A stretch of DNA of 23,794 nt from Planctomycetia bacterium (GCA_036758585.1 DAIOWH010000095.1:1-23794); one strand, 5' to 3'. Numbered from the stretch's first letter, positions 15,590-23,794 are shown. Translations and numbers: made by a program. Notes: generated by a model not told the origin, from the sequence alone.

Positions 15590-16651
15590 TCAGAGCCCCA
15601 TCGTGGGGGCCTGCGTCAGATACATCACGCGGGGCACGCCGGCCCGAAGCAGCGACTGGAGATCGATCTCGATCTTCGAACTGCGGCCGGTCGCGCTGCC
15701 CAGCAAGAGTTCCAGGAAGTCGAGCGGCCGTTTGTATTCGATCACCTGTGCATCGCTAATCTTGGCCAAGCTCTTGGCGGCGTCGATCGCGTCCTCGATA
15801 TAGCCGATCTCATCCACCAGCCCGCTCGCCTTGGCCTCGCGCGATGTGTAGACGTCGCCGGTGGCGAGTTTCTTCACTTCGTCCGCCGTCATGCCTCGCC
15901 CCTCGCTGACGACCTCGATGAACCGCTCGAAGGCGTCGTCGATCACCACCTGCCAACGTTCGCGCTCGGCCGGCGTCATCTCGCGAAACGGCGATCCGGC
16001 GTCTTTGAACGGGCCGGTCTTGATCACTTCCATACGGACCTTGAAGTCCTCCATCAGCCCGGCCACGTTCGGGAAGCTGGCGATGACGCCGATCGAGCCG
16101 GTCATCGTGGTTCGTTCGGCGAAGATGCGGTTCGCGGGGGCCGAGACGTAGTAACCGCCCGATGCGGCCAGCCCCTGCATCGACACGACGATCGGTTTCG
16201 TCTCGCCCGGCCCGCGGCAAACCTGTTGCACCTTGCGGTGAATGTGGTCGCTCGAGAAGATCGTGCCGCCCGGCGAATCGACCTTGAGCACAATCGCCTT
16301 CACCGCGTCGTCCTCTTCGGCGGCCTTGAGCTGCCGAATCACATGACGTTCGGTGACGTCCATGATCATGTCTTCGACCGAGACGATCGCGACCTTGTTC
16401 GGCGAGTTCTCATCGCCGCTGTGAAACTCCTCTTCGAGCCAAACGTCGGTCGTGGCGATGGACACGCTGCTGGCCAGCAGGTAGAGGCCGCCGACCAGCA
16501 GAACCGCGAACACGCCGAGCACGGCGAACAGGATCATCAGCCCGCGCAGCAGTCCGCTGCCTCGCCGTGGCGGGGGCGCGGCGGCGTAGGTCGGGTGAGC
16601 GGGCGATAGCACTTGAGGCTGAGCGTACACTGGGTTGTTGGGCTCGTTCAT
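15590..16651 (-). CDS. sppA: Signal peptide peptidase SppA (S49 family, 36K type)
   Basis: N-terminal TM helix, VDSPGGT and the Ser-containing MQGLAASGGYY motif of S49 peptidases. Start chosen at ATG 16651 (AAGGA 8 nt upstream). The alternatives are TTG 16666 or ATG 16657. Confidence 0.8.
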   Translation of the reverse strand: MNEPNNPVYAQPQVLSPAHPTYAAAPPPRRGSGLLRGLMILFAVLGVFAVLLVGGLYLLASSVSIATTDVWLEEEFHSGDENSPNKVAIVSVEDMIMDVTERHVIRQLKAAEEDDAVKAIVLKVDSPGGTIFSSDHIHRKVQQVCRGPGETKPIVVSMQGLAASGGYYVSAPANRIFAERTTMTGSIGVIASFPNVAGLMEDFKVRMEVIKTGPFKDAGSPFREMTPAERERWQVVIDDAFERFIEVVSEGRGMTADEVKKLATGDVYTSREAKASGLVDEIGYIEDAIDAAKSLAKISDAQVIEYKRPLDFLELLLGSATGRSSKIEIDLQSLLRAGVPRVMYLTQAPTMGL

Positions 16652-16756
16652 GGTCATTCCTTGCAAAGCATCACAGGAGCGAGAACCGATTCCGCTTCGA
16701 CGGGTTCATTCTACTCGCGACCCTCGATCGAGACGTAGAGCAAGCGGTTCGATGTA

Positions 16757-17270: not shown

Positions 17271-18086
17271 TCACTGCCGCCGCGACTTGGCGAGCCGCAG
17301 CGCCGCACGAGCCTCGCGCTCGGCCAACTCCGCTCGCACCCGCCACGCTTCGAGCTGCGCCACGTACTGTCGCATCCAGGGCGTCAGATTCACGGAATCG
17401 ACGTACAGAGCCAATTCGGCGTTCGACTCCTTGAGGCGTCGGGCGCACAAGATGCCGAGTCCGTGGAACCCCGGAAGTTGCACCAGGTCGATCGGTTCGC
17501 TCGCTTCGCGCACGAAATCCTCGACCGCCGTGAGCACGCCGTTGCGCGGCCCGTGTTCGATCGTCGCGTTGCACAGGCCCGGATTGAATCCGCCCCGTTC
17601 GACAAGCTGCGTGGAATCCGGCCGCATGCCCTTCTTCTGATACGGATTGCGGTGCTCGGCCGGTATCGACGTCGGGTCGTAGTACAGGTCGCGTCGACCG
17701 TAGGGCCAGCCGATGTCGTGACAGAAGACGAGCGGAAACGGCCGACCGGCCGCGGTGCTCGACCGCTCGATCAGCTTCAGTTCATGATAGACCGAGTACC
17801 AGTTGTGATCTCCGTCGACCAGCGCGGCGTCGACGCTTTCGATTTGCGGCAGCGCGTCGAGGCTCTTGGCCCGATGCACGATCAATCGCCCGCCGAACTC
17901 CGTCTGCCAGCCGGCGACGTCGAACTTGGGCGCGGGATCGATCGCGTGCAGAACTGCGCCCAAGCGGCGGCACAATTCCGCGAGCCGCCGCGTGCTCTTG
18001 CCCTCCTCCGAACCGATCTCGACCACGCACGTCGGCCGCAGTCGAACGAGCAGCGGTTCGATGATCGTTTCCCAATACGGGTACAT
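17271..18086 (-). CDS. Class I SAM-dependent methyltransferase (Methyltransf_24/CmcI-like)
   Basis: CVVEIGSEEGKST (glycine-rich SAM motif I) and LVDGDHNWYSV (acidic motif). It is 22 nt downstream of hflC on the same strand. Confidence 0.7.
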   Translation of the reverse strand: MYPYWETIIEPLLVRLRPTCVVEIGSEEGKSTRRLAELCRRLGAVLHAIDPAPKFDVAGWQTEFGGRLIVHRAKSLDALPQIESVDAALVDGDHNWYSVYHELKLIERSSTAAGRPFPLVFCHDIGWPYGRRDLYYDPTSIPAEHRNPYQKKGMRPDSTQLVERGGFNPGLCNATIEHGPRNGVLTAVEDFVREASEPIDLVQLPGFHGLGILCARRLKESNAELALYVDSVNLTPWMRQYVAQLEAWRVRAELAEREARAALRLAKSRRQ

Positions 18087-18108: not shown

Positions 18109-19011
18109 TTACGGCTGATCGCGCATGATGGTCAGGTCGACGTCCTGGCCGCGGTCGATGATCAGCTTCGCGCGAAAGCGGGGCACGATCTCGGCGATGG
18201 TTTCGAGGTACATGCGCGCGGCGGCGACCGCCGGCGCCTTGCGATACTCGTAGAGCAAGGCGACGAACCGTTCGGCCTCGCTGCGCGCCAGGTCGACGGC
18301 CCGCGCGTGCTCGGCCCGCGCGCGGTCGGTCCGCTGTTGCGACTCGCTGCGGGCCTGGGCCAGCTTCTCGTTCGCGTAGGTCTTGGCCTCCAGCACCAGT
18401 CGCTCGCGATCGCTGCGGGCCGACGCGGCGCGAGTGAATGCGTCGACGACCTGCGGCGGCGGCGAGAGTTCCGTAAGGCTGACCGAGCGGACCTCGACGC
18501 CCATCTCATACCGCCTCAGATTCTGCTCCAGCGTGTCCTTGATCAAAATCGCCAGTGCATCCTTGCCGCTGGTCAGCACCGAGTCGATGGACTTGCCCGC
18601 CAGCGTCGTCGACGCCGCCGACTCGGCCGCGCGCGTAATGACCTCGGCCGGATCGGCCAGCGAGAAGAGGTATCGCGTCGGGTCGGTGATGGTGTACTGC
18701 ACCGTTGCTTCGACGATCACCAGGTTCTGGTCGCCCGTCAGGAACTGGGCCAGCGACGGCGCGAGCGACGGACCGATCGCGCGATCGGTCGCGCGGTCGC
18801 CGATCTTCACGGTCTTGGTCTCGCTCGGCTTCACCAGATCGACGCGATCGAGGCCCCAGGGCAGCCCGATGTGCAGGCCCGGTTCGGCATGCTCGTCGAT
18901 GACCGCGCCGAAGCGGCGCACGACCGCTCGCTCGTCCGTGCCGACTGTGTAGATGCCGGTCGCAAGGTAGGCGATCGCACCGGCGATCACTGCCGCGACG
19001 AACCATTTCAT
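18109..19011 (-). CDS. hflC: SPFH/band-7 protein, HflC-like (short N-terminus, one TM, periplasmic SPFH domain, C-terminal coiled coil)
   Basis: MKWFVAAVIAGAIAYLATGIY TM helix, then RAVVRRFGAV...GLHIGLPWGLDRV SPFH start. GGAGG RBS. The ATG overlaps the hflK stop (ATGA at 19008-19011). Confidence 0.85.
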   Translation of the reverse strand: MKWFVAAVIAGAIAYLATGIYTVGTDERAVVRRFGAVIDEHAEPGLHIGLPWGLDRVDLVKPSETKTVKIGDRATDRAIGPSLAPSLAQFLTGDQNLVIVEATVQYTITDPTRYLFSLADPAEVITRAAESAASTTLAGKSIDSVLTSGKDALAILIKDTLEQNLRRYEMGVEVRSVSLTELSPPPQVVDAFTRAASARSDRERLVLEAKTYANEKLAQARSESQQRTDRARAEHARAVDLARSEAERFVALLYEYRKAPAVAAARMYLETIAEIVPRFRAKLIIDRGQDVDLTIMRDQP

Positions 19012-20339
19012 GGCTTGCCCTCCGTGTTGCCGCCGCCGGGCGGGCCGCTGCTTGCCGGGCCGGCGCCGTTGGCGGCCGGCGCGGACTGTTTGGCCGGCGG
19101 CTTGGTCGAGGTCGCGGCGGGATGGCCGTCGGTCAGGAGTCGCAGCAGGTTCGATTCGGACGAGAGCACGATGGTGGTCTTTTCGTTCAGGATCGCGCGA
19201 TAGGTTTCGAGCGTCTTCAGGAACTGGTAGAACTCGGGGTCCTGACTGTGCGCGGCGTTGGCGATGCGCATGGCCTGGGCCTCGCCCTCGCCGCGGATGC
19301 GTTCGGCGTCGGCGGCCGCCTTGGCCAGTATCTCGGCGCGCTCGGTGTCGGCAAGGCTGCGTATCTTGTCGGCCTCACTCTTGCCCTCGTCGCGATACTT
19401 CTTGGCGACGCCCTGGCGCTCGGCCCGAATCATCTCGAAGATCGCCGGCTTCACCGCTTCGGGATGATTGAACCGCTTGATCCGCACGTCCACGATCTCG
19501 ATGCCGAACTGATCGAGTGCATCGCGGCGAATCTGCTCGGTCAGCTCGCGCATCAGCCGATCAAGCCCGATGTCCTTGGGGTCAAGGCTGACGAACTCAG
19601 CGAGACTCATTTCTCCGACCCGGGCCTTGAGCATCGAGTCGATGCGTTCGCGCAGCCGGTCTTGAGCGGCCGGGATGCTGCCGACCGAGAGCACGAAACG
19701 CAACACGCCCTTTTTGAAATCGGCGTTGGCCTTCGCGGTCGGGATGCGCCAGCAGACGTACCAATCGACCGAGAGCGGCGGGCCGCCGAGACTGGCTCGC
19801 GACCGTGCGTCGCCCGCCGCCTGGCCGATCTGCGGCCGATCGCGCGTGAGCATGGTGCTGCCGGGCGGGCTGTACATTTGCAGCCGCCGATCCAGCCGCC
19901 GCACGCTCTGATACGGCAGCTTGAAACCCAACCCCGGCTCGACGCACAACCGGACCGGCCTGCCGAATTCCAGGACGTAGACATACTCGGTCTGGTCCAC
20001 AAAGAAACACGCCGACCAAGCGACGAGGCCGACGAGACCCGCCGTCACGCATGTCACAACCGCCCGCTTGATCGAGCCGCCTCGGCCGGGGCCGTGCACG
20101 TGGGAGTGGTCGTGGTGATGGTGGTCGTGACCGCCGTCGTGCGAATGGCTATGTGCATGGTCGTGATCGTGATCGTGGTCATGATCGTGATGGCCGTGAC
20201 CATGGTCGTGTGCGTGGCTGTGCGGGTGGCTGTGTCCGTGCGAATGGCCATGATTGTGGTCATGGTTGTGGCTGTGCCCATGAGATTCGCTCGGGGCGTG
20301 CGAGTGATCGTGCTCGTGCTTGTCGGATTCGTTGTGCAT
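19008..20339 (-). CDS. hflK: SPFH/band-7 protein, HflK-like, with ~80-aa His/Asp/Ser-rich N-terminal cytoplasmic tail
   Basis: Residues 1-82 are HxHx repeats (HEHDHSHAPSESHGHSHNHDHNHGHSHGHSHPHSHAHDHGHGHHDHDHDHDHDHAHSHSHDGGHDHHHHDHSHVH). A TM helix follows (AVVTCVTAGLVGLVAWSACFF), then the SPFH domain (YVYVLEFGRPV...EPGLGFKLPY) and a Lys/Ala/Glu-rich coiled coil. Confidence 0.85.
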   Translation of the reverse strand: MHNESDKHEHDHSHAPSESHGHSHNHDHNHGHSHGHSHPHSHAHDHGHGHHDHDHDHDHDHAHSHSHDGGHDHHHHDHSHVHGPGRGGSIKRAVVTCVTAGLVGLVAWSACFFVDQTEYVYVLEFGRPVRLCVEPGLGFKLPYQSVRRLDRRLQMYSPPGSTMLTRDRPQIGQAAGDARSRASLGGPPLSVDWYVCWRIPTAKANADFKKGVLRFVLSVGSIPAAQDRLRERIDSMLKARVGEMSLAEFVSLDPKDIGLDRLMRELTEQIRRDALDQFGIEIVDVRIKRFNHPEAVKPAIFEMIRAERQGVAKKYRDEGKSEADKIRSLADTERAEILAKAAADAERIRGEGEAQAMRIANAAHSQDPEFYQFLKTLETYRAILNEKTTIVLSSESNLLRLLTDGHPAATSTKPPAKQSAPAANGAGPASSGPPGGGNTEGKP

Positions 20340-20363
20340 GCGATTCTCAGTAGGCGCGTTGAA

Positions 20364-23300
20364 CTACTGATCCAGTTCCATCGGCGGCGTCGCGACCGGT
20401 GCGGCGGCGGCGGGGAGCCGGATGTTGAACTTATCGGGGTCGGCCAGGAAGAGCTGCCGGCGACCGGCGGCGGCCGGATCGAGCACCAGCTTGTCCTTGT
20501 CGGCGAGTGTGGCCTCGATCGCGTTCAGGTAGAGCCGCAGGCTGGAGATCGCCGGCCAATCGGCGTAGGCGGCGCGTCGCATCGAAAACGCCGCCGCATC
20601 GCCCTCGGCCCGGTACGTCTGATCGGCCGCCCGCGCCTTGGCCGCGGCCAGTTCGCTCGACGCCTCGCCGCTCAGGTCCGGTTTCAGTTCGGCCCAGACC
20701 GCGTCCGTCACCTGGCCATCGTGCCGCGCGAGTCGTTCGGCGGCGGCGGCGCCGGCGACCGTGATGATTTGCTGCTGAAAGTAAGCGTCGGCCTCCTTCT
20801 GCATGCGCTCACGGTCCTTGAACGCGCTCGAAACGTCGTGGAAGGCGTCGACGACTTGCAGCGGCGGGTGCACATCCTGCAGCGCGACGGCACGGACGTC
20901 GACGCCGAGTCGGTAGTCATCGGTGCGTTGTTGCAGTAGCGACCGGGCCTCGCGCTCGATCTCGGCGCGCTCAGCGGTCAGGATATTCCAGAACGCTCGC
21001 CGCGCGGCCAGTTCGCGCAGCACGCCCTCGGCCAGCGACTTGACGACCGAGTCGGGATCGCGCACCTCGAAGAGATATCGCACGATGTCGGCGTCGCCGC
21101 GCCGCACGCTGAACTGCACCACTGCGTTCAGCTCGAGCAGGTTCTCGTCGCCCGTGAAGAGCAGCGACTCGTCCTCGACCCGTTCGATCAGTCCCTCGCG
21201 ATGCGTGCTGGTCCACTCGATCGGCCGCGCCCCTTGGAACGACTCGTCGGTCCGCGTGCGAAACCCCAGTTCGGCCACGCGCACGCGGTCGGGCGCGAAT
21301 CGCTCGACCGTCTCCCACGGCCGCGGCAGCCGGAAGTGCAGGCCCGGCTCGAGCGCGGCGATGAACCCGCCGCAACGTTTCACGACGCCGACCTCGTCGA
21401 GGTCCACTACCGTGACGCCCATCGCCCAGTAGCCGATCACGGCCGCAACCGCCGCCCACGTCGCGGCCGCTCGCGGTTTGCGCACGGCCCAACGGACGGG
21501 CTGTAGCAGCGGATCGAGCGCGGCGCCTGCGCGGCGGGCCAGTTCGCACGCCTGCGATTCGAACCGACCGGCCGCCGATCGTTCCCAGCGCTCGAACCAG
21601 AGCAGGCGCATCGCATTGACCAGCACGAGAAACGAACCGATCTGGTGGTAGATCGCCGCGCCGACCGGGCCCAGCCGTTCCGCCGCAGCGAGCACGATCG
21701 CGACGCCGTTGACGACGAACGCGAACAGCACGATGTTCTGCCGAATCACCCGCACGGTCGCGCGGCTGAGCCGCACCAGGCCGGGCAGCGGGGCGAGCGG
21801 GTCGCCCATCAGGACCAAATCGCCCGCCTCGGCCGCGATGTCGCTGCCCACGCCGCCGAGCGCCAGCCCGACGTCGGCCGATGCCAGCGCGGGAGCGTCG
21901 TTCACGCCGTCGCCGATCATGGCGATGGGAACGCGAGAGGATAGAGGATAGAGGATGGAGGATGGAGGATGGAGGATGGAGGATTGCGCAGAAGCGGTCG
22001 GAGTGTCGTTGCGCGATCCTCGATCCTCTATCCTCGATCCTCTACCATCAACCCTCCTCTTGATCCACTCGGCCTTCTCTTGCGGCAGCAACTCGGCGTG
22101 GAACTCGTCGATGCCGACGGCGCAAGCGACGGCCTCGGCGGCCGGCCGGCGGTCGCCCGTGAGTAGGACGATCTCATCGATGCCGAGGTGTCGCAGCTCG
22201 CCAAGCACGTCGACGGCACCGGCCCGGATCGTGTCGCGCGCGCCGACGAGGCCGATGACGCGGCCGTCGAGCGCGACGGCGAGCGGCGTCTGGCCGGCCG
22301 CGTCGAGTCGCGCGAAGGCCGCGGTAACCTCGTCATCCAGCGTGACGCCCTGCTGCTCAAGCAACCGTCGGTTGCCGACGCAAATCAGAGATTGCTGATT
22401 GCTGATCGCCGATTGCTGATCGCTGACGGTTGACGTCTGACCGCTCGTCCGCGCGACAACTCCTGCGCCGGGGTGGGCCGTGAACTCATCGACGGAGGGC
22501 AGCACGAGTGCGCGTTTGGCGGCCTCGGCGACGATCAAACGACCCAACAGATGTTCGCTACGCGACTCGGCAGCCGCGGCGATCGCGAGCACCTCGTCGG
22601 CCGAGCGCTCGGCGAGCGGGATGACGTCGCCGAGTTGCAGCTTGCCTTCGGTCAATGTGCCGGTCTTGTCAAAGGCGATCGCGCGGACGTGGGCAAGGCG
22701 CTCGAGTGCGGCACCGCCCTTGATCAGGACGCCGCGCCGGGCCAGCCACGCCAACGCGGCCATGATTGCGGCGGGGGTCGCCAGAATCAGCGCGCACGGG
22801 CACGCGACGACCAGCACCGCGAGCGTCGGCATCCAATCGGCGCTCGTCAGGTCCGACCAAGGAGTACCCCAGGTCGTGTAGACCATCGTGCCGGCGGCAC
22901 TCGCGAGCACGACCGGCAGGAACACGCGGGCGAGCCGGTCGGCGATGCGTTCGATCGGCGCCTTGTTCTCTTGCGCCTCGGCGACCAGCTCGATCACCTG
23001 AGCGAGCGTTGTGTCCTCGCCGACCTTGTCGGCCCGCACTTCGAGCGCGCCGAACTGGTTCAGCGTGCCGGCGAAGACCATATCGCCCGCGGCCTTGTCC
23101 ACCGGCACACTCTCGCCAGTAAGCGTGCTCTGGTCCACGGCCGACTGGCCGCCGAGCACCGAGCCGTCGATCGGGACTCGTTCGCCGGGCCGCACCACCA
23201 CGCGCTCGCCGACGTTCAGTTCCGTGATGGCCACGTCGACCTCGTGGCCGTCGCGCAGCACGTGGGCCACGCGCGGTTGCAGTTCCAGGATGCGGCTCAT

Positions 23301-23693
23301 CTCGCGATGCGTGCGGGCGAACGTGATCGCTTCGAGCGATTCGCCGACCATCGCGATGAAGACGACTTCGGCGCCGACCCAGTACTCGCCCAGGATCAGC
23401 GACGCGAGCAGCGCGATGGCCAGCGCGAGGTCCGCTCCCACGTTGCCATCGAACAGCGCAAGCAGCGCCCCGTAGACGATCCGCGCCCCGCCGATCACGG
23501 CCGCGGCGAACGCGAGGTCGAGCCAGCCGAACGGCCGATCTGGCCCGGTGTAACCGAACGCCGCGAGAACGAGGTGTGCGCCGATCAGCACGCCGAGCAG
23601 GATCGTCAGCGCGTACAGTCCCCGAAACGACGGCAGTCGCAGTGCGTCTTCCGGGTCTATCTTGTGCTGCATGTGCATCGGACGGGTACCCAC
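20364..23693 (-). CDS. Fusion protein: CPC-type P1B heavy-metal-translocating P-type ATPase (aa 1-~700, no N-terminal HMA domain) + linker with extra TM helix + C-terminal HflK/C-like SPFH domain (last ~347 aa)
   Basis: One uninterrupted 1109-codon frame. ATPase motifs: TGESVPV (actuator), VVACPCALILATP (TM6 CPC), FDKTGTLT (phosphorylation site), MIGDGVNDAPALA (hinge). The junction is near nt 21596 (…NAMRLLW|FERWERS…). A TM helix AAATWAAVAAVIGYWAMGV follows, then the SPFH domain (GVVKRCGGFIAALEPGLHFRLP…QVVDAFHDVSSAFKDRER…). The stop lies 24 nt upstream of hflK. Confidence 0.8.
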   Translation of the reverse strand: MGTRPMHMQHKIDPEDALRLPSFRGLYALTILLGVLIGAHLVLAAFGYTGPDRPFGWLDLAFAAAVIGGARIVYGALLALFDGNVGADLALAIALLASLILGEYWVGAEVVFIAMVGESLEAITFARTHREMSRILELQPRVAHVLRDGHEVDVAITELNVGERVVVRPGERVPIDGSVLGGQSAVDQSTLTGESVPVDKAAGDMVFAGTLNQFGALEVRADKVGEDTTLAQVIELVAEAQENKAPIERIADRLARVFLPVVLASAAGTMVYTTWGTPWSDLTSADWMPTLAVLVVACPCALILATPAAIMAALAWLARRGVLIKGGAALERLAHVRAIAFDKTGTLTEGKLQLGDVIPLAERSADEVLAIAAAAESRSEHLLGRLIVAEAAKRALVLPSVDEFTAHPGAGVVARTSGQTSTVSDQQSAISNQQSLICVGNRRLLEQQGVTLDDEVTAAFARLDAAGQTPLAVALDGRVIGLVGARDTIRAGAVDVLGELRHLGIDEIVLLTGDRRPAAEAVACAVGIDEFHAELLPQEKAEWIKRRVDGRGSRIEDRGSRNDTPTASAQSSILHPPSSILYPLSSRVPIAMIGDGVNDAPALASADVGLALGGVGSDIAAEAGDLVLMGDPLAPLPGLVRLSRATVRVIRQNIVLFAFVVNGVAIVLAAAERLGPVGAAIYHQIGSFLVLVNAMRLLWFERWERSAAGRFESQACELARRAGAALDPLLQPVRWAVRKPRAAATWAAVAAVIGYWAMGVTVVDLDEVGVVKRCGGFIAALEPGLHFRLPRPWETVERFAPDRVRVAELGFRTRTDESFQGARPIEWTSTHREGLIERVEDESLLFTGDENLLELNAVVQFSVRRGDADIVRYLFEVRDPDSVVKSLAEGVLRELAARRAFWNILTAERAEIEREARSLLQQRTDDYRLGVDVRAVALQDVHPPLQVVDAFHDVSSAFKDRERMQKEADAYFQQQIITVAGAAAAERLARHDGQVTDAVWAELKPDLSGEASSELAAAKARAADQTYRAEGDAAAFSMRRAAYADWPAISSLRLYLNAIEATLADKDKLVLDPAAAGRRQLFLADPDKFNIRLPAAAAPVATPPMELDQ
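21937..22056. repeat. 120-nt palindromic heptamer-repeat element inside the ATPase CDS (7 x 'gaggatN', 29-nt spacer, 6 x inverted 'NatcctC')
   Basis: Read directly. It is in-frame: it encodes GRGSRIEDRGSRNDTPTASAQSSILHPPSSILYPLSS between the LPQEKAEWIKRRVDG and VPIAMIGDGVNDAP blocks, which are contiguous in ordinary P1B ATPases. Confidence 0.75.
22390..22424. repeat. Heptanucleotide tandem repeat (gattgct gattgct gatcgcc gattgct gatcgct) inside the ATPase CDS
   Basis: Read directly. It encodes the low-complexity VSDQQSAISNQQS insert in the nucleotide-binding domain (…GAGVVARTSGQTST[VSDQQSAISNQQS]LICVGNRRLL…). Confidence 0.55.
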
Positions 23694-23794
23694 AGCGGCA
23701 GTTCCAAGCTAGGGGCGACCGTGGGTGAAGTCAAGCTGAAGAAAAGGTTCTTCCGGGTCTGGAGTGGCTGATTGATCGCGGTTGGTGTGTGCGG

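Follow-up and report, generated by a model that had tools for sequence, protein, structure and literature searches.

A P1B-type metal ATPase fused to an HflK-like SPFH subunit, and a proposed SPFH-based metal efflux platform in bacteria

Three genes, here termed A, B and C, lie in tandem on the minus strand of the window (the whole stretch of DNA analyzed, 23,794 nt), the first encoding a metal pump continued in the same frame by an HflK-like domain, and the other two encoding separate SPFH proteins. Their features are as follows, with residue numbers (aa) referring to the gene named.

20364..23693 (-), gene A, P1B-ATPase::HflK-like fusion (ORF, Pfam and NCBIfam domains, conserved N-terminal motif, family architecture)
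21579..23636 (-), pump core of A, aa ~20-705, comprising MA, MB, M1-M6 and the A, P and N domains (AF2, Foldseek, phmmer against PDB)
22794..22802 (-), CPC motif in TM4 of A, aa 298-300, transmembrane metal site (family conservation)
22656..22670 (-), DKTGT phosphorylation motif of A, aa 342-346 (invariant in family alignments)
21924..22052 (-), window-specific in-frame insert in a P-domain loop of A, aa ~548-590 (repeats, hairpin, homolog comparison)
21633..21647 (-), TM6 'HQIGS' of A, aa 683-687 (phmmer alignment to 7QBZ, family conservation)
21477..21578 (-), cytoplasmic linker helix of A following TM6, aa ~706-739, with a basic end, RKPR (AF2 helix 707-738)
21423..21476 (-), ninth TM helix of A, aa ~740-757, HflK-type membrane anchor (hydropathy, AF2 helix 740-757)
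20868..21416 (-), SPFH/Band_7 domain of A, aa ~760-942, predicted periplasmic (PF01145, TIGR01933, PDB phmmer, fold match)
21168..21254 (-), insertion in A specific to transporter-fused SPFH domains, aa ~814-842 (alignments)
20508..20861 (-), coiled-coil helices of A, aa ~945-1062, HflK-type cage wall and roof (AF2, alignment to 7VHQ_E)
19008..20339 (-), gene B, HflC-like SPFH protein, 443 aa (TIGR01932, Band_7)
20076..20339 (-), His/Asp-rich N-terminal tail of B, aa 1-88 (sequence)
18109..19011 (-), gene C, second HflK-like SPFH protein, unfused, 300 aa (TIGR01933)

Read from a GTG start, gene A is an uninterrupted frame of 1109 codons (ORF scan), as the initial annotation had proposed in describing a P1B ATPase and an HflK/C-like SPFH domain within one ORF, and the same frame recurs in many genomes. 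An ATG at codon 6 (nt 23678) is predicted to be the more likely start, since it aligns with MHREYHP, an N-terminus conserved in relatives. Three Pfam matches, all exceeding curated cut-offs, span the protein: E1-E2_ATPase (aa 137-320, E 5e-56), Hydrolase (aa 336-546, E 8e-23) and Band_7 (PF01145, aa 762-969, E 7e-17, 62.5 bits against a gathering score of 23.6), and AF2 models the protein as a whole at pLDDT 80.4. Around the junction of the two parts third-position GC is high (0.7-0.97) in a single frame throughout, and in P0001 (518 aa, 100% identical), which comes from another contig recorded by JGI, one frame runs across the junction. No family is matched by the long ORFs of the opposite strand (19122..20939 and 22473..23771), which are shadows cast by DNA of 65% GC. 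Gene A is confirmed as a genuine fusion, in one frame and not an assembly artefact. A search of A, B and C against the PADLOC anti-phage defence models returned no match.

The pump part was initially read as a complete eight-helix CPC-type P1B ATPase, a description that is upheld by its catalytic motifs, its modeled helices and its fold. AF2 places the eight helices at residues 24-45, 60-81, 87-100, 104-136, 246-275, 288-319, 635-670 and 676-705 of a pump core modeled at pLDDT ~90, Foldseek matches this core to AfCopA (7R0G, TM 0.76-0.78) as well as to ZntA and sCoaT, and the TIGR01525 (ATPase-IB_hvy) score of 533.4 bits clears the curated threshold, 346.25. The full set of motifs (TGES192, CPC298, DKTGT342, GDGVNDAP594) is invariant, or conserved at 90% or more at single positions, in alignments of 22 and 35 family members; within the CPC, C298 and C300 are invariant across the fused family and P299 is retained in at least 90%. 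Neither gene A nor any of the 35 full-length members matched the HMA metal-binding domain (PF00403), a ferredoxin-like N-terminal module that is frequent in P1B pumps without being universal.

Identity of the transported metal can be approached only through the membrane motifs. In TM6, the sequence HQIGS lines up with HEGST, the motif that forms part of the metal site in sCoaT (7QBZ), a P1B-4 pump, H683 being invariant and S687 nearly invariant in the family, while TM5 carries V661-N662, i.e., VN rather than YN, and no Lys. The signature of P1B-1 Cu+ pumps combines YN in TM5 with MxxSS in TM6. Gene A scores 436.6 bits with the Cd/Zn family model TIGR01512, above its cut-off of 313.5, and 379.5 bits with the Cu model TIGR01511, below its cut-off of 397; it falls far below the cut-offs of the ZntA equivalog models. 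The TM5 VN, the TM6 HQxxS and these two family scores argue that the metal site is not of the Cu+ type, and a P1B-1 (CopA-type) identity was rejected on these grounds. Membership in P1B-4 (sCoaT/CzcP type) was likewise rejected, as the motif is CPC and not SPC and the pump has eight helices where P1B-4 has six, leaving only the TM6 His in common. Compared with the P1B-2 site, represented by ZntA (4UMV), the TM4 CPC is shared, the TM6 Asp is replaced by the aligned His, and the TM5 Lys is missing; in contrast to both P1B-2 and P1B-4 pumps, gene A lacks an HMA domain and bears a C-terminal SPFH extension. The combination of CPC, N662 and HQxxS is not known to fit any classical subgroup signature of the Smith-Rosenzweig classification. 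A divalent substrate (Zn2+, Co2+, Ni2+ or Cd2+), not Cu+, is a best guess that rests on motifs only.

One peculiarity of this pump is the P-domain insert, composed of an inverted pair of 7-nt tandem repeats with a predicted hairpin of -69.4 kcal/mol (z -5.85) and modeled by AF2 at pLDDT <50. It is missing in most homologs, and Gemmatales relatives carry other inserts at the same site.

The pump is joined to the SPFH domain by a linker and an additional membrane helix. The ninth helix proposed earlier holds, while the accompanying estimate of a ~60-aa linker is corrected to ~35-45 cytoplasmic residues plus the helix; across the family 23-59 residues (mean 44) separate TM6 from TM9. In alignments to E. 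coli HflK chains this helix falls on their TM region, and the net charge flanking it averages +2.3 before and +0.1 after, a bias that obeys the positive-inside rule and so fits an in-to-out helix with a periplasmic SPFH part. A periplasmic location as in HflK, also put forward in the initial annotation, is consistent with both the AF2 helix and this bias, although the topology remains a prediction.

The expectation of a full SPFH domain followed by a coiled-coil tail was met by an HflK-type fold. TIGR01933 (HflK) scores 153.9 bits on aa 761-984, narrowly under its cut-off of 159.4, and HflK is the only match when the SPFH part is searched against PDB by phmmer. An AF2 model of the C-terminal 409 aa (pLDDT 86.5) finds E. 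coli HflK (7VHQ_E) as its best solved match (E 3e-18, TM 0.72, 330 columns), followed by HflC, stomatin, prohibitin and erlin. On the strength of this model, the C-terminal part of gene A is a complete HflK-type subunit consisting of an anchor helix, an SPFH domain and a long coiled coil, and its last 370 aa match the HflK layout seen in PDB entries 7VHP, 7VHQ, 7WI3 and 9CZ2. It differs from E. coli HflK in forming the C-terminal extension of a transporter and in carrying a ~15-30-residue insertion that E. coli HflK lacks.

This insertion (W-x-S-x-H...E) is present in all ATPase- and CDF-fused SPFH domains, with W827 and H831 invariant and E842 near-invariant in 66 sequences, and the alignment finds it absent from C paralogs, from ordinary HflK and from B. 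As judged from these alignments, it is a shared derived feature of transporter-fused SPFH domains. Confidence in its modeled structure is low, pLDDT being <50 when the full-length protein is modeled and ~58-79 when only the C-terminal part is.

Genes B and C follow A closely, B starting 24 nt downstream of A and the start of C overlapping the stop of B by 4 nt. Their initial assignment as HflC and HflK neighbors is sustained by scores above the respective cut-offs, B reaching 151.7 bits with TIGR01932 (hflC, cut-off 134.4) and C 191.7 bits with TIGR01933 (hflK, cut-off 159.4); Band_7 is the only Pfam match of B. The SPFH part of A had been said to resemble both neighbors, of which the likeness to HflK stands (gene C, 30% identity, E 3e-30), whereas that to HflC does not, B being barely similar (E 2e-4). 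A homolog of B lies behind A in ~28 of 35 fused loci, one of C in ~24, and the order A-B-C is found in ~24 of the 35, across phyla. C is missing at several loci (L012, L016, L019, L022), and neither gene is nearby at others (L006 from Fervidibacter, L014, L015, L036), so that these dedicated partners are not obligatory. The window contains no ftsH gene, nor does one recur next to the 32 fused loci analyzed.

The first 90 residues of B include 38 His and 12 Asp, and since this tail precedes the membrane helix of B (aa ~92-115) it is predicted to be cytoplasmic. Among close relatives, B bears a His-rich tail in L082 and L084 but not in L083, and in Isosphaeraceae a His-rich stretch resides at the pump N-terminus rather than on B. 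The feature is sporadic, being pump-borne in three of 35 representatives, and its shifting between A and B would be expected if both N-termini share the cytoplasmic face of one complex. This migrating tail, the insertion in the fused SPFH domain and the CDF-fused architecture described below all lie outside what was initially noted.

Single ORFs of 1007-1183 aa combining pump and SPFH domain occur in ~25 species genomes from Planctomycetota (including cultured Singulisphaera and Tundrisphaera), Armatimonadota (including Fervidibacter) and Verrucomicrobiia. Among the best 149 cluster representatives at 50% identity, 80 are pump-fused, 34 of these at full length, and E1-E2_ATPase, Hydrolase and Band_7 are found together in 35 of 35 full-length members. 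A further 24 of the best 149 representatives (~11 genomes) carry a CDF metal exporter on the same type of SPFH domain, with the same B and C genes downstream; fusion of this unrelated exporter in like manner suggests that the SPFH link is to metal export and not to P-type chemistry. The initial annotation would have been undercut by a common and already annotated architecture, and the family is indeed large, but its annotation is trivial: public database names such as 'cation-translocating P-type ATPase family protein', 'FtsH protease activity modulator HflK' and 'Cu+-exporting ATPase' reflect one half of the protein only. Literature searches found no paper describing a P-type ATPase–SPFH fusion, in keeping with the initial remark that none was known, and the fusion represents a widespread bacterial family that is apparently undescribed.

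Several known systems resemble parts of this arrangement. In E. coli, 24 subunits, HflK alternating with HflC, make up a cage, and the two proteins modulate, both positively and negatively, the proteolysis of membrane proteins by FtsH (PMC12048511). As in hflK-hflC operons an HflC-like gene stands next, B behind A, although three paralogs (HflK'-HflC-HflK'') are present here in place of two, and no FtsH link has been shown for gene A. In M. tuberculosis the single-pass scaffold PacL1, with a zinc-binding DLHDHDH motif, stabilizes the P1B pump CtpC, whose normal abundance requires it, in high-molecular-weight 'metal efflux platforms' that have been likened to functional membrane microdomains (PMC9374683). 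Both systems encode in one operon a P1B pump and a single-pass protein with a His/Asp metal-binding motif, which on B is an HDHDHDH-rich 88-aa tail. The resemblance is functional only, as PacL1 is a small DUF1490 protein and a non-covalent partner whose foci are flotillin-independent (PMC9374683), whereas the scaffold of gene A is an SPFH protein attached covalently to the pump and predicted to lie on the periplasmic side. A Pfam scan of A, B and C gave only ATPase and Band_7 families, and no PacL-type DUF1490 partner. Stomatin cages enclosing AQP1 and UT-B (PMC12407830) likewise tie an SPFH oligomer physically to a specific membrane transport protein, but do so non-covalently, in a eukaryotic membrane and on its cytoplasmic side, in contrast to a cis fusion with a predicted periplasmic SPFH domain.

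On this basis we lean, with moderate confidence, towards a divalent-metal efflux pump that is covalently part of a three-paralog HflK/HflC-type assembly, in effect an SPFH-based 'metal efflux platform'. Gene A would be an active P1B exporter of a divalent transition metal, both activity and metal being inferred, and its cytoplasmic C-terminus would lead through a ~44-residue linker and the ninth helix to the HflK-type subunit in the periplasm, a topology that is also inferred. This subunit would join co-transcribed B and C in building a ring or cage at the inner membrane, on its periplasmic side, and would hold the pump permanently at or inside a scaffold-delimited membrane patch, which presupposes that many ~75-kDa pumps can fit around or inside a ~20-nm ring. 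The His/Asp-rich cytoplasmic tail may collect metal and feed or regulate the pump, substituting for the missing HMA domain, and the Trp/His insertion, which would lie on the periplasmic side though its placement with respect to the pump exit is unresolved, may accept or sense the ion that the pump releases. A capacity of gene A to form cages is suggested by its solved fold relatives (HflK, HflC, stomatin, prohibitin, erlin), all of which do so, but the tethering of the pump into a cage that includes B and C is an inference drawn from fold and conserved synteny, with neither an experiment nor a multimer model behind it. If correct, the fusion would provide a rare example of an SPFH scaffold with a hard-wired 'client'.

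An unlikely alternative is that the HflK-like part, B and C serve to dock FtsH and thereby set pump abundance by regulated proteolysis or protection, the scaffold having no role in handling metal. The only solved relatives in sequence and fold are HflK and HflC, which are FtsH modulators (PMC12048511), both B and C exceed the NCBI equivalog cut-offs for hflC and hflK, and the dependence of CtpC levels on PacL1 illustrates that scaffolds can set pump levels (PMC9374683). Such control leaves unexplained why only metal exporters, from two unrelated families, are fused, as well as the Trp/His insertion and the His-rich tails. The lack of a neighboring ftsH, in the window or recurrently at the 32 loci, also speaks against it, albeit weakly, since in E. 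coli ftsH is unlinked to hflKC as well.

It is also conceivable, if rather improbable, that the SPFH domain is self-contained, acting in cis on its own pump, by way of the Trp/His insertion, as a periplasmic acceptor or sensor of metal or an autoinhibitory lid, or clustering pumps by homo-oligomerization without a mixed cage. Fused loci with neither B nor C adjoining, and the restriction of invariant W827 and H831 to fused domains, would be accommodated by such a role. It is harder to reconcile with retention of the full HflK-type coiled coil, which serves oligomerization in solved SPFH proteins, with the tight operon order of B and C at most loci, in distant phyla and with both pump types, and with a His tail that shifts between A and B. 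Finally, the notion that separate pump and hflK genes were joined by a sequencing or assembly indel or by a recent functionless mutation, to which high-GC DNA (where open frames are common) and two related contigs whose pump and SPFH parts differ in frame or belong to genes that overlap (L085, L087) lend some color, is effectively refuted by the same single frame in complete genomes of cultured strains and >100 cluster representatives, by the identical separate contig and continuous codon-position GC, and by a linker conserved in length and charge pattern across the family.

The CDF fusions, exemplified by P0008 (locus L001; MDP8248239.1, named 'FtsH protease activity modulator HflK'), share with gene A the Trp/His insertion, and P0008 also has a similar arrangement of a ~45-residue linker and an anchor helix. 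Their transporter is a six-helix cation-diffusion-facilitator in which, as inferred from length, the usual cytoplasmic C-terminal domain is missing. Separately, one CDF::SPFH sub-clade adjoins feoA/feoB.

An intact metal exporter and a complete HflK-type subunit make up one conserved polypeptide, encoded by the first of three same-strand genes:

20364..23693, minus strand: gene A, fusion of a P1B-ATPase with an HflK-like SPFH domain, 1109 codons
19008-20339, minus strand: gene B, HflC-like SPFH protein, starting 24 nt downstream of gene A
18109-19011, minus strand: gene C, unfused HflK-like SPFH protein, overlapping the gene B stop by 4 nt

The initial annotation had described gene A as a single unbroken frame of this length, and an ORF scan of the window, together with an even codon-position GC content (0.7-0.97 at third positions throughout the frame, junction included), agrees with it, as does a separate JGI contig record whose 518-aa fragment, 100% identical, spans the product from GDGVNDAP across the junction to the stop. 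Codon 6, an ATG at nt 23678, is the likely true start; MHMQHKIDPED, read from there, aligns with the planctomycete MHREYHPADM, and only 100 nt of the window lie upstream of the gene. A frameshift or artefact at the junction is rejected, since the single frame is conserved in relatives and the identical separate contig crosses the junction. Both the junction and the repeat-built insert of the P domain are read from assembled sequence alone. That the pump::SPFH architecture of gene A is real and functional we regard as close to certain.

Domains and helices of the gene A product (Pfam matches above gathering score; AF2, AlphaFold2 model)
aa 137-320: E1-E2_ATPase, Pfam
from aa 336: HAD-type Hydrolase, Pfam
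aa 676-705: TM6, AF2
aa 707-738: long helix after TM6, AF2
aa 740-757: ninth hydrophobic helix, AF2
aa 760-942: SPFH alpha/beta domain, AF2
aa 762-969: Band_7/SPFH, Pfam
aa 945-1062: long helices, AF2

Against the heavy-metal P1B model TIGR01525 (NCBIfam) gene A scores 533 bits (cut-off 346), and the four pump motifs named from the sequence are all in place (TGES192, CPC298, DKTGT342, GDGVNDAP594). A full-length AlphaFold2 model based on an alignment of 35 family members (mean pLDDT 80.4) contains the eight P1B helices, with the A, P and N domains at pLDDT ~90, and matches the solved P1B pumps AfCopA (7R0G, TM 0.76-0.78), ZntA and sCoaT; helices, motifs and structural matches together uphold the claim of a complete eight-TM P1B ATPase. 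The HflK equivalog model TIGR01933 (NCBIfam) aligns with aa 761-984 at 153.9 bits, below its cut-off of 159.4. When modelled separately (pLDDT 86.5), the last 409 residues find their best solved match in E. coli HflK (7VHQ_E, E 3e-18, TM 0.72, 330 columns), followed by HflC, stomatin, prohibitin, erlin and QmcA, all SPFH proteins forming cages, and by sequence HflK is the sole solved relative of this part. The HflK-type fold match over 330 columns confirms that a full SPFH domain and helical tail follow the pump, as had been proposed. The TM6 motif MRLL and the ninth helix are separated by 23-59 residues (mean 44) in the 35 full-length members of the family, and net charge drops from +2.3 over the 15 residues ahead of the helix to +0.1 behind it. 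P1B pumps have a cytoplasmic C-terminus in the solved structures of AfCopA, ZntA and sCoaT, and this, combined with the charge bias at the ninth helix, would place the SPFH part of gene A in the periplasm, like HflK; the self-consistent topology suggested earlier is thereby supported, as a prediction.

Homologs were examined for whether the two halves are fused or split, as the initial annotation had advised. A word-indexed search with the C-terminal 409 aa returned few matches, including partial pump+Band_7 proteins and a CDF+Band_7 protein, on contigs with two further Band_7 genes immediately downstream. A scan of species-representative genomes yielded 80 loci. At ~25 of them the SPFH match makes up the C-terminal end of an ORF of 1007-1183 aa, which over its first ~700 aa is 38-54% identical to the gene A pump. 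The hosts are Planctomycetota (Isosphaeraceae, including the complete genomes of Tundrisphaera lichenicola P12 and Singulisphaera sp. PoT, Gemmataceae/Gemmatales, and Planctomycetaceae), Armatimonadota (including Ca. Fervidibacter sacchari PD1) and one Verrucomicrobiia MAG. At ~11 of the 80 the match is the C-terminus of a 560-680-aa ORF with a CDF transporter N-terminus (Zixibacteria, Myxococcales, Gemmatimonadota, Nitrospirales and others), and the other loci hold ordinary unfused hflK-hflC pairs. An exhaustive search of 1.84 billion cluster representatives gave 249 matches (E <= 1e-30); among the best 149, which were classified, 80 are pump-fused (34 full length) and 24 CDF-fused, the remainder are mostly contig-edge fragments of fused proteins or ordinary HflK, and no third type of fusion partner occurs in these 149 of 249. 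All 35 full-length pump::SPFH members combine E1-E2_ATPase, Hydrolase and Band_7, and none has an HMA domain; the nearest relatives of the gene A product are planctomycete MAG proteins at 52-55% identity. The fusion is common in nature and not peculiar to the window genome: metal exporter::HflK-type fusions occur in more than 100 sequence clusters from at least four to six phyla, the same SPFH arrangement being built also on CDF, an unrelated exporter family. In CDF::SPFH protein P0008 (one sequence only) the linker gap is 46 residues.

The gene order is likewise conserved, two more SPFH paralogs, one HflC-like and one HflK-like, usually being kept behind the fused gene. By tblastn, A-B-C on a single strand is found at ~24 of 35 fused loci, with both pump types; four of the 35 have A-B without C, and a few have A alone. 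At loci L006 (Ca. Fervidibacter sacchari), L014, L015 and L036 the pump::SPFH fusion has no B or C nearby, and there it must work by itself, self-assemble or recruit SPFH partners from elsewhere in the genome. Stand-alone A-type SPFH genes were rejected among the candidates examined, which were contig-edge fragments or split/frameshifted copies beside a pump or CDF gene. In L085 (1-1433) the pump TM6 region lies upstream of an A-type SPFH in a different frame, and in L087 (2824-4591) a CDF gene and the SPFH gene share 53 nt, with B and C behind them. Both cases reflect either natural splitting or indel errors; true splits would mean that the exporter and SPFH halves can work as separate chains.

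Inserted between two strands of every transporter-fused SPFH domain is a stretch with the signature W-x-S-x-H and, after it, an acidic residue (W827, H831 and E842 in gene A). C paralogs, ordinary HflK and gene B lack this insertion, and an alignment of 66 sequences, CDF-fused ones included, shows no variation at the Trp and the His. Judged from the alignment, this shared derived insertion would tie the pump-fused and CDF-fused types together, and because of it a common origin of the fused domains is favoured over a neighbour-joining tree in which planctomycete, Armatimonadota and CDF-fused domains fall apart (no support values, long branches; not relied on).

Within the window, gene B meets the HflC model (TIGR01932, 151.7 bits, cut-off 134.4) and gene C the HflK model (TIGR01933, 191.7 bits, cut-off 159.4). 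The SPFH part of gene A had been likened to both neighbours; the likeness holds for gene C (30% identity, E 3e-30) but not for gene B, to which it is barely similar (E 2e-4), so that the locus reads HflK'(fused)-HflC-HflK''. Two further genes lie close by:

17271-18086, minus strand: Methyltransf_24 gene, 22 nt past gene C
15590-16666, minus strand: ClpP/S49-type serine peptidase, 1.4 kb downstream of the SPFH genes

The methyltransferase gene may be co-transcribed with the triad, and was rejected as part of the system since tblastn finds none in 81 related loci (L001-L081). NfeD-type proteases are classic operon partners of SPFH genes; the peptidase matches NfeD1b_N below threshold (32.5, cut-off 40), and having no tblastn homolog near the same 81 loci it was rejected as an NfeD-style partner, its nearness to the SPFH genes being probably coincidental. 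The rest of the window looks planctomycete-like (DUF4058, Uma2, GFO/IDH/MocA, xylose-isomerase-like barrels) and contains neither ftsH nor a metal regulator, promoter and terminator scans gave uninformative matches at chance level, and a defence-system reading was rejected, PADLOC giving no match. Elsewhere, extra neighbours such as LptD, pullulanases and secreted proteases are unrelated, ATPase-type loci have no recurring one, and the sole one that recurs is feoA/feoB, which in one CDF sub-clade immediately precedes the CDF::SPFH-B-C triad:

L001, 2054-3993: FeoA/FeoB beside CDF::SPFH
L013, 609-2630: FeoA/FeoB beside CDF::SPFH
L023 and L031, 3552-5261: FeoA/FeoB beside CDF::SPFH

FeoA/FeoB is a ferrous iron importer, a hint that this CDF branch deals with Fe2+ or keeps iron uptake and efflux in balance.

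The fused pumps share the TM4 metal-site element ACPC, an invariant Asn in TM5 (N662) with no Tyr ahead, and an invariant TM6 His (H683) in HQxxS; HMMER aligns this motif to HEGST in sCoaT, a P1B-4 pump and the top PDB hit for the TM6 region. For gene A the Cu-type model TIGR01511 falls below cut-off and the Cd/Zn-type TIGR01512 above it. The Cu+ specificity implied by JGI names finds no support in the TM5/TM6 residues or in TIGR01511, and on these residues and the two model outcomes we read the pump as a putative divalent-metal exporter forming its own subgroup; this reading relies on motif comparison only, with P1B subgroup signatures taken from the literature, and leaves the metal undetermined. 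Gene B has an N-terminal tail of 88 residues, with 38 His and 12 Asp, which is predicted to be cytoplasmic because it precedes the membrane helix. The subunit that bears the His-rich tail, pump A or B, differs among lineages: it is B in the window and, of the three closest relatives, in L082 and L084 but not L083; in Isosphaeraceae it is the pump, with 10-14 His among its first ~110 residues, and the B proteins there have none. A conserved extreme N-terminus, MHREYHP(A/E)DM, of unknown function and often followed by a His-rich run, lies within the first ~20 codons of the fusion in the planctomycete members L003, L005, L007-L011, L015 and L040, the window version being MHMQHKIDPED.

Around FtsH, HflK and HflC in alternation build a periplasmic cage of 24 subunits, or an open 'nautilus' (PMC12048511). 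AQP1 and UT-B sit inside stomatin cages (PMC12407830), and the mycobacterial P1B pump CtpC depends on PacL1, a single-pass scaffold with the zinc-binding motif DLHDHDH, for high-molecular-weight 'metal efflux platforms' (PMC9374683), of which the fused arrangement would be an SPFH-based counterpart. We consider it probable, by inference and without a multimer model, that A co-assembles with B and C. In such a mixed ring the SPFH part of A would fill HflK positions and B the HflC positions, with C filling HflK positions without a pump; the ~44-residue linker would hold the pump at the ring, the poly-His tail of B or A may gather metal at the cytoplasmic face and substitute for the absent HMA domain, and the Trp/His insertion would lie toward the periplasmic side, the site of ion exit. 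Simple geometry, inferred with no coordinates measured, suggests that twelve ~75-kDa pumps could not fit in a ~20-nm ring, so that C would dilute the pump-bearing subunits or the pumps would sit outside it. Any specific downstream role of the assembly is at present a tentative proposal.

Regulated pump turnover via FtsH would follow the HflK/C precedent; we think this role unlikely. A cis-acting periplasmic accessory domain, with no mixed cage, would be compatible with the loci lacking B and C and leaves aside the prevalent A-B-C order; it seems to us a rather poor candidate. Co-assembly could also be taken further, to a closed periplasmic SPFH chamber receiving metal from the tethered pump (CDF in the sister family), a nano-compartment with the Trp/His insertion lining it near the exit, cytoplasmic poly-His tails as a collecting antenna, and C diluting the pump-bearing subunits enough for the pumps to fit. 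This is speculation to which we give little credence, and if true it would mean protein-bounded sequestering, storage or mineralising of a transition metal, or metallation of clients inside. An artefactual joining of pump and hflK retains practically no weight beside the conserved frame and the second contig.

P1B ATPases, HflK/HflC-type SPFH proteins and poly-His metal-binding tails are already known as components. A full-text literature search, thin for subscription journals so that absence is unproven, found no description of a covalent pump-SPFH or CDF-SPFH architecture, nor of the three-paralog operon, the Trp/His insertion or the migrating His tail. The initial annotation would have yielded to a common, already annotated architecture; common it is, and annotated only by names covering one half. 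Public records of family members (WP_422929947.1, WP_259095273.1, MDP8248239.1, MBC8871999.1) bear contradictory names, those in use being, by source, 'cation-translocating P-type ATPase family protein', 'FtsH protease activity modulator HflK', 'Cu+-exporting ATPase' and 'hypothetical protein', which exposes a systematic annotation problem. To our knowledge, the function and client choice of bacterial SPFH cages are largely open beyond HflK/C-FtsH. An SPFH client hard-wired by evolution offers a defined, genetically tractable system for asking what an SPFH assembly does to a transporter, be it to enclose, stabilise, regulate or compartmentalise it, and it is of interest to the SPFH-scaffold and metal-homeostasis fields because the fusion fixes the client and some hosts are in culture (Singulisphaera sp. 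PoT, Tundrisphaera lichenicola, Ca. Fervidibacter sacchari). On the metal side, the system suggests a new P1B subgroup (CPC / N / HQxxS, no HMA) whose metal-binding tail can sit on a partner scaffold.

Two opposite-strand ORFs run antisense to genes A and B:

19122-20939, plus strand: ORF of 605 codons
22473-23771, plus strand: ORF of 432 codons

Family searches gave no match for either; they are shadow frames of 65% GC DNA, typical for high GC, and could mislead gene callers. Gene A itself contains an in-frame insert in the P-domain loop (21936-22056, aa ~548-590) made of about six tandem 7-nt units GAGGATA/GAGGATG, with the reverse complement ATCCTCG/ATCCTCT 38-59 nt off, and encoding RIEDRGSRIEDRGS...SSILHPPSSILYPLSS. 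Its GC content is 55% vs 69% for gene A, its mRNA is predicted to form a hairpin (-69.4 kcal/mol, z -5.85), and it is single-copy in the window and missing from most homologs; Gemmatales relatives have different inserts in the same loop. A second short tandem, of 7-nt units GATTGCT/GATCGCC, lies in the N domain (22390-22424, aa ~423-436), where it encodes SDQQSAISNQQS at AF2 pLDDT <50, and may likewise have arisen by in-frame expansion of a repeat.
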